From: Planctomycetota bacterium
GTDB lineage: Bacteria > Planctomycetota > UBA8108 > UBA1146
Length of the DNA: 34,730 nucleotides
Assembly (NCBI GenBank): GCA_036338595.1
Contig: JAYZBV010000076.1
Span: 1-34,730 of the forward strand
Direction of reading: 5' to 3'
A model generated the notes under the pieces. It saw nothing but the letters and a program-made list of their open reading frames with translations, had not been told where the DNA came from and did not search any database. The position numbers were made by a program, and so were the translations under genes. Each line of letters starts with the position of its first letter. The stretch's first letter is position 1. This document shows, piece after piece, positions 1-2,070 of the stretch.

Positions 1-12
1 AGGTCGGAAGAT

Positions 13-51
13 CGGGCCGGTCGTCCATCGGACGACCGGCCCGGTTTTTTT
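13..51 (+). terminator. Intrinsic terminator immediately upstream of the inositol-3-phosphate synthase RBS
   Basis: Perfect 14-bp inverted repeat CGGGCCGGTCGTCC (13-26) / GGACGACCGGCCCG (30-43), loop ATC, then T7 (45-51); GGGAGG follows at 52-57. Confidence 0.85.
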
Positions 52-65
52 GGGAGGATGTTACG

Positions 66-1265
66 TTGGCCCGCACGGGAGTCTGGCTGGTAGGTGCTCG
101 AGGTGGTGTCTCCACCACCGTGATCGCGGGCCTAGCCGCGATGAAACGGCAACTGACAGCGAGCATCGGACTGCTCACCGAGACCTCCCTGTTCGCGCAG
201 TGCGACCTTCCTTCCATCGAGGATCTGATCATCGGTGGTCATGAGATTCGCGACGGGTCGCTTCGAGCGAGTGCTGAAGCCATCTGCTCCGATAGCGGCA
301 GCATCTCTCACGACATCATCGAGGCAGTCAGTGACGACCTGGAGCAAGCGGATCAACAGATTCGCCCCGGAGTGTTGCTCAATGCTGGCGAGGCCATCCT
401 CTCACTACAAGGCATCGATCGATCCTGCATCTCCGATCATCCCGCTCCTGCTCTGGAGAGGATCGAATCTGACCTGCGACAATTCATCGAGGATCAACAG
501 ATCGATGGATTGGTGGTGGTCAATCTTTCTTCGACGGAGGCAGCCCTTGCGCCACACCCATGCCACCAGACAGCAGCAGAGATGCGGCGACAACTCGCAG
601 CTGGATCGGCTGAACCGTTCAGCTCCAGTACTCTCTACGCCATCGCCGCAGCTCACGTTGGCGCGTCCTTCGTCAACTTCACTCCCTCACCTGGAGCACT
701 GTTACCGGCAACCTGCGAACTGCTGGAGGAGCACGGATGTGCCTACGCAGGGAGCGACGGAAAGACGGGAGAGACCCTGGTCAAGTCGGCGCTGGCGCCG
801 ATGTTTCTCCAGAGGGCCCTCAAGGTCCTGTCGTGGCAGGGCTACAACATGCTCGGTGATCGAGATGGGGAAATCCTGGCCCATGCAGACAATCGCCAGA
901 CCAAGATCGACTCGAAGGGGGAACTGATCGAGCAGATTCTGGGTGCCGATGTTCACAGCCAGGTGTCGATCGACTATGTCCCTAGCCTGGGAGATAACAA
1001 GACCGCCTGGGATCTGATCCACTTCGAGGGTTTCCTGGGCCACAAGATGACGATGCAGTTCACCTGGCAAGGCTGCGACGCTGTGCTGGCCGCTCCGCTG
1101 GTACTCGATCTGTGCCGGATGCTGGAGTGGGCCAGAAGGCGTGGTGATTCGGGGCTTCAGCGTCAGTGTGGGCTTTTCTTCAAGAGCCCCCATGCATCGG
1201 ACGTCTTCGATCTGCCAACCCAGTACCACACTCTCACCGAGTACATCGAGCAGTCTAGGGGCTGA
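66..1265 (+). CDS. ino1: Inositol-3-phosphate (myo-inositol-1-phosphate) synthase
   Basis: N-terminal Rossmann GVWLVGARGGVSTT, VVVNLSSTE, VNFTPS, GSDGKTGET, YNMLGDRDG, DNKTAWD, GCDAVLAAPLVLDL, FFKSP; SD GGGAGG 8 nt before TTG. Confidence 0.93.
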   Translation: MARTGVWLVGARGGVSTTVIAGLAAMKRQLTASIGLLTETSLFAQCDLPSIEDLIIGGHEIRDGSLRASAEAICSDSGSISHDIIEAVSDDLEQADQQIRPGVLLNAGEAILSLQGIDRSCISDHPAPALERIESDLRQFIEDQQIDGLVVVNLSSTEAALAPHPCHQTAAEMRRQLAAGSAEPFSSSTLYAIAAAHVGASFVNFTPSPGALLPATCELLEEHGCAYAGSDGKTGETLVKSALAPMFLQRALKVLSWQGYNMLGDRDGEILAHADNRQTKIDSKGELIEQILGADVHSQVSIDYVPSLGDNKTAWDLIHFEGFLGHKMTMQFTWQGCDAVLAAPLVLDLCRMLEWARRRGDSGLQRQCGLFFKSPHASDVFDLPTQYHTLTEYIEQSRG

Positions 1266-1322: not shown

Positions 1323-1365
1323 AAAAAAAAGAGGCGCAACTGGTAGAGGATACCAGCCGCGCCTC
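1323..1365 (-). terminator. Intrinsic terminator of the candidate sRNA
   Basis: Minus strand GAGGCGCGGCTGGTA-TCCTC-TACCAGTTGCGCCTC-T8; 15-bp stem whose two imperfect positions are G-U pairs only on the minus strand. Confidence 0.88.
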
Positions 1366-1391
1366 ATGGGCTCTGAAAGGTGGGATTCAGA
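1323..1391 (-). ncRNA. Candidate ~70-nt small RNA of unknown family
   Basis: Bounded by a near-consensus sigma70 promoter and a strong terminator; 5' hairpin UCUGAA-UCCCACCU-UUCAGA; no complete SD-led ORF inside. Confidence 0.65.
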
Positions 1392-1396
1392 CTTTC

Positions 1397-1425
1397 AATG
1401 TAAGTGAAGTACGCCCGATTGTCAA
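1397..1425 (-). promoter_or_regulatory. Sigma70-type promoter
   Basis: Minus strand TTGACA (1425-1420) - 17 nt - TACATT (1402-1397); palindrome GATTG-T-CAATC (1417-1427) overlaps the -35. Confidence 0.75.
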
Positions 1426-1458
1426 TCCCGTTGTACTACTGTTGGGCGGCTTCACCCC

Positions 1459-1511
1459 TCGAGAATCGCTGACTGCGTTCCAGCGCGCCTGGAATGCGTC
1501 AGCGGTCTCGA
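1459..1511 (+). repeat. Long intergenic inverted repeat / hairpin
   Basis: TCGAGA-a-TCGCTGAC-t-GCGTTCCAG-cgcgc-CTGGAATGC-GTCAGCGG-TCTCGA: 23 bp including two G-U pairs on the + strand, two single-nt bulges. Confidence 0.7.
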
Positions 1512-1686
1512 AAACTCGTGGACCTGTCTCGGAGGTCCCTCTTGGCTCCACATCCGAAGCAACGCCCCGGCAGGACAGAGCGTTCCTGAACTTCCGAAAA
1601 ACTTATGGGTGCCAGGGGGCTCGACTACAGTCGTGGATGCTGACGATCCGGAATGTGCTGGAGATCGCAGCCAGTACGCGGAGAGA

Positions 1687-2070
1687 TCAGGTGGATAGAC
1701 CCGGATCTTCATTCTTGGGTGCTGGCAACACCTCACCATAGTAGGCCAGCGCATCCTGGAGGAATAATCTCAACTCTGCAGGAAGCAGGATCTTGTCGAG
1801 TCTCTCCACTTCACGGTCACCGTCAAAAAGCGCCAGAGTCGGTACCGTTCTGATCGAGAACTTTTGTAATTTTTTCACATCCTGGAGGGGCACATCCACG
1901 GTTGCGATCTGTAGTTGTCCGACAAAGTCGGGAGCGATCAGTGCCAGACTCCTCTGAGCGAAACCGCAGGAGGAAACGAGCGGTGAACCGAAGTGGACCA
2001 GCATCAAACCGTCGTTGGATTCGAGTCTCTGATCCAATTGATCTATATCAAGGAACAAGAACTGACTCAT
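1687..2070 (-). CDS. Thioredoxin-fold protein lacking the CxxC motif
   Basis: LMLVHFGSPLVSSC in place of VLVDFWAxWCxxC; IATVDV, KFSIRTVPTLALF (cis-Pro), GDREVERL; SD-like GGAAGGTG. Confidence 0.8.
   Translation of the reverse strand: MSQFLFLDIDQLDQRLESNDGLMLVHFGSPLVSSCGFAQRSLALIAPDFVGQLQIATVDVPLQDVKKLQKFSIRTVPTLALFDGDREVERLDKILLPAELRLFLQDALAYYGEVLPAPKNEDPGLST

Follow-up and report, generated by a model that had tools for sequence, protein, structure and literature searches.

Introduction

RosA of Bacillus subtilis is an independently transcribed, G-rich sponge RNA that binds the C-rich region CRR1 of the small RNA (sRNA) RoxS (PMC8216469). According to two further papers, the sponge QrrX of Vibrio cholerae pairs with the sRNAs Qrr1-4 and sends them to decay by RNase E (PMC9732341), and the stress-induced sponge CrfA of Caulobacter crescentus inactivates the conserved sRNAs SisA-D (PMC12559287). 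For planctomycetes, literature titles gave no description of sRNAs, base-pairing RNA regulation or RNA motifs; supplements of motif surveys (e.g. PMC5737381) and subscription papers could contain the motif described here.

The window, i.e. the whole stretch of DNA analysed, comprises 34,730 nucleotides of contig JAYZBV010000076.1 from a Planctomycetota bacterium whose genome is called G000 below. Its minus strand carries an RNA gene at 1323-1390, which we call the window sRNA. A second RNA, predicted to be transcribed from a sigma-54 promoter and complementary to the window sRNA at its 5' end, is called the partner sRNA.

Results

Anatomy of the window sRNA gene

The first-pass annotation had described TTGACA-N17-TACATT on the minus strand, followed by a hairpin, a 15-bp terminator and U8, and every one of these elements was recovered in place. 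The sigma-70-type -35 hexamer TTGACA (1420..1425, minus strand), found by motif search and kept at a fixed distance in 23/38 copies of the gene, is separated by a 17-nt spacer from the -10 hexamer TACATT (1397..1402, minus strand), and transcription is predicted to start near 1390. The predicted short form of about 67 nt (1323..1390, minus strand; from fold, covariance model and alignment) comprises a weak, clade-specific 5' hairpin of 6 bp with the loop UCCCACCU (1372..1391), the invariant core CCYACCU(U0-2)CAGAGCCCA (1367..1384), a terminator hairpin whose 15-bp stem is capped by the conserved top GGUAUCCUCUACC and usually contains a mismatch near its middle (1331..1365), and the U8 tract of the intrinsic terminator (1323..1330), all on the minus strand.

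The 73-nt fold of the window sRNA had a z-score of -8.0, and 0/200 shuffles were as stable. Within the first 4 kb of the window, neither the promoter count (1 vs 1.0 in shuffles) nor the terminator count (2 vs 1.9) exceeded chance. Because the window sRNA is conserved, these counts no longer give reason for doubt. The convergent myo-inositol-1-phosphate synthase gene ino1 (66..1265, plus strand; PF07994 and PF01658, synteny) serves as context only, and a GC-rich long inverted repeat with a U-run was seen just 5' of its start (8-53, plus strand).

Conservation, strand and the conserved unit

With a covariance model trained on 15 close copies, the window sRNA was detected in 34/34 genomes of the order and in 0/25 other genomes of the class. 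By BLAST it was found in 24/24 genomes of the family and in 3/6 other genomes of the order. The copy in G033 scored weakly by the model (E 1.6e-4) yet has the full core. The exact core pattern occurs in 13 of 401 genomes of the phylum, every one inside the order. A metagenome scan returned 42 matches, about 18 of them true copies by inspection and the remainder chance, which left the range unchanged, and viral contigs gave 0 matches for the window sRNA and 0 for the partner sRNA. Second weak model matches at two loci (L219 and L221) proved to be generic terminators. Two near-identical window sRNA copies in G022 (C135 and C289) probably reflect a mixed bin and not paralogs.

In the terminator stem, 98.2% of cells pair, and 12/13 pairs show two-sided change among 31 distinct copies, a count that leans toward pairing as the alignment was fitted to the covariance model. 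G-U pairs number 18 when read on the minus strand vs 2 on the plus strand, which fixes the minus strand as the transcribed one. The self-contained minus-strand sRNA gene with a C-rich pairing region that the first-pass annotation had proposed is borne out by its presence throughout the order, as is the strand that it had read from the G-U pairs, and its call for conservation and covariation was answered by the BLAST and model matches and by the covarying stem. We conclude that the window sRNA is a real RNA family, conserved across one order of uncultured planctomycetes as judged from these alignments.

The same annotation had centred on the hairpin with its C-rich loop, which the homologs do not support as the conserved unit. 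The first hairpin is predicted (P>0.5, with only 3-5 bp) in 15/23 copies of the sigma-70 type and, among these 23, in none of the 8 copies of genus g7, where the predicted start coincides with the core itself. Alignment by inspection indicated that copies without the U insert also lack the 3' arm of this hairpin. The core, in contrast, is present and unpaired in 31/31 distinct copies, including paralogs whose hairpin loop has decayed; in paralogs generally, the core is kept and the hairpin varies. Family f2 genomes hold up to three copies, and G031 has three. Hence the conserved unit is the core, and the hairpin is clade-specific.

Two features of the terminator, namely the retention of its top GGUAUCCUCUACC in copies linked to a thioredoxin-like (trx-like) gene and the single mid-stem mismatch in most copies, are not accounted for by partner pairing.

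Assignment to known RNA classes

The first-pass annotation had recognised no family, and a search of the window against Rfam 15 agreed: no match reached the gathering score, the best having E 0.16 and 20.3 bits vs 50. Among seven homolog loci, Rfam returned only an unrelated piece of a group II intron, and ARAGORN reported nothing on the window sRNA, which is thus uncatalogued at the Rfam gathering score. CcsR1 (RF02791) was rejected at 15.5 bits vs a gathering score of 65.3 (E 0.41), and the window sRNA has no CCUCCUCCC loops. A peptide from the conserved AUG was also discarded: the frame has no stop ahead of the terminator in the window, but some g7 copies contain a stop codon and the copy at L058 a frame shift. 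The CCCC loop variants, judged by inspection, gave no support to pseudoknot pairing of the loop with AGAG. With promoter motifs of two types (23 and 27 of 38 copies), a terminator, conservation and no coding capacity, the gene has the make-up of an independently transcribed sRNA.

As to the RNA machinery, Hfq (PF17209) was found in 0/5 genomes, with control rings in 5/14 and G000 being 88% complete, and the Hfq-dependent class of sRNAs does not fit. The genes for rpoN, RNase III and RNase E/G were each found in 5/5 genomes, and CsrA in 2/5, G000 not among them. A CsrA sponge of the CsrB/RsmZ type was rejected as well: the plus strand is the one with the GGA motifs, the G-U pairs favour the minus strand, and G000 has no CsrA that we could find.

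Assembled contigs of the RNA runs X1, X3 and X4 do not cover the window sRNA, although contigs cannot show a 65-nt RNA; X1 contains just short ino1 pieces. Contigs of X1, X3 and X5 are likewise without the partner sRNA, and small RNAs get dropped from contigs.

Promoters and neighbouring genes

Conservation of the promoter held in part. The sigma-70 motif occurs 34-42 nt upstream of the core in 23/38 copies, and these account for every one of the 23 genomes in genera g1, g5 and g7 (genome-wide background 0.00045 per 60 nt). A second promoter motif of the ECF type, GGAAC-N17-CGTT (1561..1586, minus strand), had been missed; transcription from it, starting near 1553, would produce a long form that measures about 230 nt. 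In the form GGAAC-N17-CGT it lies 129-288 nt upstream of the core in 27/28 copies of family f1 and in 0/10 copies of families f2 and f3 (genome-wide background 0.018 per 300 nt). The f2/f3 copies carry neither motif, and a conserved C/A- and C/U-rich 5' extension stands in place of the promoter motifs in distant copies. A long hairpin with a CCAG..CTGG top (1459-1511, minus strand) was observed within the predicted long form, and similar ones occur in other genomes of genus g1.

GGAAC-N17-CGT also precedes an ECF sigma gene of G000 (L373:714-2083, contig C92). The best model for this gene, SigH_actino, reaches 142 bits where the cut-off is 252, and the gene after it encodes an RsrA-like anti-sigma, likewise under its cut-off. 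The motif is present at this sigma gene in G000 and in 5/5 orthologs but 0/3 paralogs, a conserved autoregulatory motif by its appearance. Promoters of SigH/SigE in Corynebacterium read GGAAC-N17-18-cGTT (PMC10012870). Because the motif matches these promoters and precedes a SigH-like sigma gene, we infer that the window sRNA is induced by stress. Transcription would accordingly be driven by a housekeeping promoter in three genera and by a SigH/SigR-like stress promoter in family f1. The same motif was seen 5' of a Clp ATPase gene and of 24 other predicted genes, and a second ECF sigma paralog (L383, L384) has a sigma-54-like motif upstream instead.

The trx-like gene (1687..2070, minus strand; PF00085, E 4.6e-6) lies upstream on the same strand. 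This arrangement recurs in 31/38 copies, with the gene 135-600 nt before the core in relatives; four f2/f3 copies sit only 135-138 nt past its stop, and no trx-like gene was found upstream of three copies or in any of 5 out-of-order genomes. The protein lacks CxxC and reads SPLVSSC, and some f2 genomes have two trx-like paralogs, each followed by a window sRNA copy. The rpoN gene is located 3.5-6.5 kb from the window sRNA in 3/4 order genomes tested (G009, G014 and G030). In G000, 2.5 kb separate rpoN from the end of its contig, C37, and the window likewise begins at a contig end, which makes a similar proximity in G000 plausible.

A sigma-54-type partner sRNA

A weak covariance-model match on contig C113 of G000 led to the partner sRNA, a predicted sigma-54-driven small RNA gene of 170 nt (G000:C113:96010-96179) with a sigma-54-type motif, five helices and a terminator. 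Clear or some two-sided change was seen in 4/5 helices, and the gene is convergent with a rodA/ftsW gene. By model, it occurs in 30/34 genomes of the order and in 13/25 other genomes of the class. It was not found in G011, G018, G022 and G029 (genomes 79-82% complete), and a match with one mismatch in G029 turned out to be coding sequence. The combination of the sigma-54 motif with GGGCUYU was detected in 27/34 order genomes, with 2 control matches, and the 3' seed in 22/23 genomes of the class and 0/378 others. The first 10 nt are predicted to be only partly unpaired (0.2-0.87), and the seed has a predicted mean unpaired probability of 0.5-0.97 in 9/10 homologs.

Several side observations concern this RNA. 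Two near-identical partner copies in G008 (C223 and C236) probably reflect a mixed bin and not paralogs. In family f4 (G034, G036, G038 and G040) there are 2-3 perfect seed matches per genome, although model R2 found no partner in these genomes; they are possibly multiple diverged partner copies. Only G000, G001 and G007 show a seed match of about 15 bp at the start of dnaK (L394:285-315, G000:C73); dnaK, third among 2261 starts in G000, was dropped as a conserved seed target on account of its absence as such in 5/5 more distant genomes. A sigma-54-like motif was noted upstream of dnaK in G000. Three further strong sigma-54-type motifs of G000 are intergenic with no gene within 300 nt (C37:39620, plus; C108:12130, minus; C72:16336, plus) and may mark additional sRNA genes.

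The core is complementary to the partner 5' end

The partner starts with GUGGGCUCU followed by UGGGA, which are complementary to AGAGCCCA and UCCCA, both of the core. This complementarity was first spotted by eye after the weak model match, and the pairing tests are therefore post hoc. With the partner start set 11 nt after the -12 motif and the first 25 nt scored, these 25 nt outranked every other partner window in pairing with the cognate core in 30/30 order genomes (-21.0 to -29.4 kcal/mol). Partner homologs outside the order, of which 13 were tried and 2 had no detectable promoter, gave the best-pairing window at the 5' end in 0/11 cases (-4.7 to -16.4 kcal/mol, ranks 14-60), even though each was given the best of all core variants. 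The genomes of these 11 homologs do not possess the window sRNA.

Changes that preserve pairing were found on both RNAs as C-to-U opposite G, together with the paired changes AAUCCCA/UGGGAUU in G030 and CACAUAC/GUAUGUG in G032. The partner keeps GACA in genera whose window sRNA no longer pairs there. A trans-encoded complement of the middle of the partner was found in 0/5 out-of-order genomes.

In energetic terms the short form is modest. The complementarity to another sRNA, as a sponge would have it, is conserved, and it is weak by energy in G000, where the partner site came 319th when 5980 windows were scored against the core and 276th when the scan was reversed, and where the duplex of 9 + 5 bp has a net cofold energy of only -10 to -12 kcal/mol. 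Across 21 short-form genomes, the net cofold energies ranged from -11.5 to -21.2 kcal/mol. The 25-nt core alone showed no cognate preference (p 0.44, 15 genomes), which is expected because the core sequence is invariant. Taken together with the long forms below, the window sRNA and the partner very probably pair in some way, as far as their sequences tell.

Long forms extend the predicted duplex with cognate bias

Among nine long-form genomes, the extension pairs with partner nt 13-85, and the clearest examples (G010, G013, G016, G031 and G032) have duplexes of about 35-45 bp; G009 and G033, also among the nine, gave no extension signal. No comparable extension pairing was seen in five short-form genomes tested. 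Cognate pairs averaged -34.2 vs -29.9 kcal/mol for non-cognate pairs (9 genomes). The permutation p for cognate pairing was 0.0001 at full length, 0.004 when each genus was represented by a single genome, and 0.0019 for the extension alone with row and column effects removed (9 long-form genomes), where kin genomes are not independent and kinship inflates all p values of this test. The cognate pair was the top of its row in only 2-3/9 long-form genomes, and family f2 alone gave 8/120 in the cognate test. Against a surrogate background, G000, the long duplex outscored all 1891-2669 seed-sharing windows in 5/7 cases; 8 and 1 surrogate windows scored better in the other two.

Discussion

Sequence comparison establishes the anatomy and strand of the gene, its conservation across the order, the partner gene, and a conserved complementarity that gains length and a cognate bias in distant genera. 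The reading that we favour, at a probability of roughly one half, is that the window sRNA acts as a base-pairing sponge that binds and silences the partner sRNA; the direction of the interaction and its outcome would be as follows. The partner 5' GUGGGCUCU would serve as the toehold on which AGAGCCCA nucleates. The C/U-rich extension of long forms may then displace the first helix of the partner and yield the duplex of 35-45 bp, whose degradation (RNase III and RNase E/G are present) would lower the partner level, and mRNAs repressed by the partner's 3' seed would be released. The short form in the window retains only about 9 + 5 bp of this duplex.

Because the duplex spares the partner's seed, two other outcomes keep a share of the probability. 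The direction may be reversed, with the 5' domain of the partner trapping the window sRNA, itself a regulator of many mRNAs, or binding the 3' end of the trx-like mRNA. We regard this as unlikely. An invariant core facing a variable partner site is indeed what a seed with many targets would show, the three copies in G031 suit it, and so do the f2/f3 copies without both promoter motifs, four of which lie 135-138 nt past the trx-like stop. However, no conserved mRNA target of the core was found in G000, the only genome scanned; the partner, which occurs class-wide, is the older RNA and carries an invariant seed of its own; and the f1 copies have their own promoter motifs, with three copies having no trx-like gene found upstream.

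Less likely again is activation, in which masking or cutting the 5' domain would stabilise or release the module of 3' seed and terminator. In its favour, the duplex would occupy the first helix and the 5' end of the partner but not the seed, and RoxS is processed to a shorter form with the help of RosA (PMC8216469). For most homologs, however, structure prediction gives no sign that the 5' domain sequesters the seed (9/10, by the unpaired values given above), and the papers on the sponges RosA, QrrX and CrfA report inhibition or decay. A more elaborate version, about as improbable, is an Hfq-free switch of two RNAs: toehold invasion of up to 45 bp would not destroy the partner but set off the cleavage that frees its 3' seed module, which the whole class shares, and the ECF stress sigma factor together with sigma-54 would form an AND gate at the RNA level.

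The first-pass annotation had viewed the C-rich loop as a base-pairing seed for Shine-Dalgarno (SD) regions. As an independent sRNA of this kind, the window sRNA would block G-rich ribosome-binding sites and would match the partner by chance. CCCACCU and the loop UCCUC do resemble the anti-SD sequence, AGGAG/GGAGG are the commonest 5-mers before starts in G000, and the partner site there is unremarkable by energy. Nevertheless, the seed claim found no support in the scan of 2242 starts in G000, which contained no outlier (best -27.8, mean -12.5, sd 3.6), and pairing of the core to the trx-like start, visible by eye in G000, is not conserved (-6 to -24 kcal/mol, 30 loci). Chance matching also fits poorly with rank 1 at the partner 5' end in 30/30 vs 0/11 and with the cognate bias of the long duplex, so we consider this reading improbable. 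Least credible of all is that there is no independent RNA but a terminator of the trx-like gene plus a conserved DNA operator, or a plus-strand CsrA-binding RNA with GGA motifs: the same-strand trx-like gene in 31/38 copies, GAGGA in the plus-strand loop and the three RNA runs whose contigs have no reads over the gene (and cannot show a 65-nt RNA) would agree with it, but two promoter motifs lie between the trx-like gene and the core, G-U outnumbers A-C by 18 to 2 on the minus strand, CsrA is in only 2/5 genomes and not in G000, and variable spacing within the core and changes of the G-U type suit RNA pairing.

Returning to the sponge reading, the window sRNA is the first candidate interactor of the sigma-54 sRNA. 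Chaperone-free RNA regulation can be tested directly with two named sRNAs that share a predicted toehold and that offer long forms, short forms and paired changes made by nature, in an uncultured lineage with no Hfq found. If the reading is true, a SigH/SigR-like stress sigma factor would be linked to sigma-54 at the RNA level.

Among known RNAs, those of the CcsR1 type (RF02791, C-rich anti-SD sRNAs) are likewise short, with C-rich single-stranded motifs and a terminator, whereas the window sRNA has no CCUCCUCCC motif and no SD target was found for it. The Qrr RNAs are sigma-54-dependent. QrrX involves Hfq and induction by a LysR-type factor, whereas here Hfq was found in 0/5 genomes and the promoter motifs are of the sigma-70 and ECF types; CrfA is associated with Hfq and has several sibling targets, and no homology of either to the window sRNA is shown. 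RosA, a sponge of RoxS/FsrA, resembles the present case in sRNA-sRNA pairing through C-rich and G-rich regions, and it changes the stability and processing of its partner. Here, in contrast, the binding RNA is the C-rich one, and its site covers the first helix and the 5' end of the partner and not the conserved 3' seed, over a predicted 35-45 bp in the long forms, and no homology to RosA is shown. The predicted features that set the window sRNA apart are thus, with respect to QrrX and CrfA, the absence of a detected Hfq and, with respect to all three sponges, the length of the trans duplex and the binding of a 5' domain that is not the seed.
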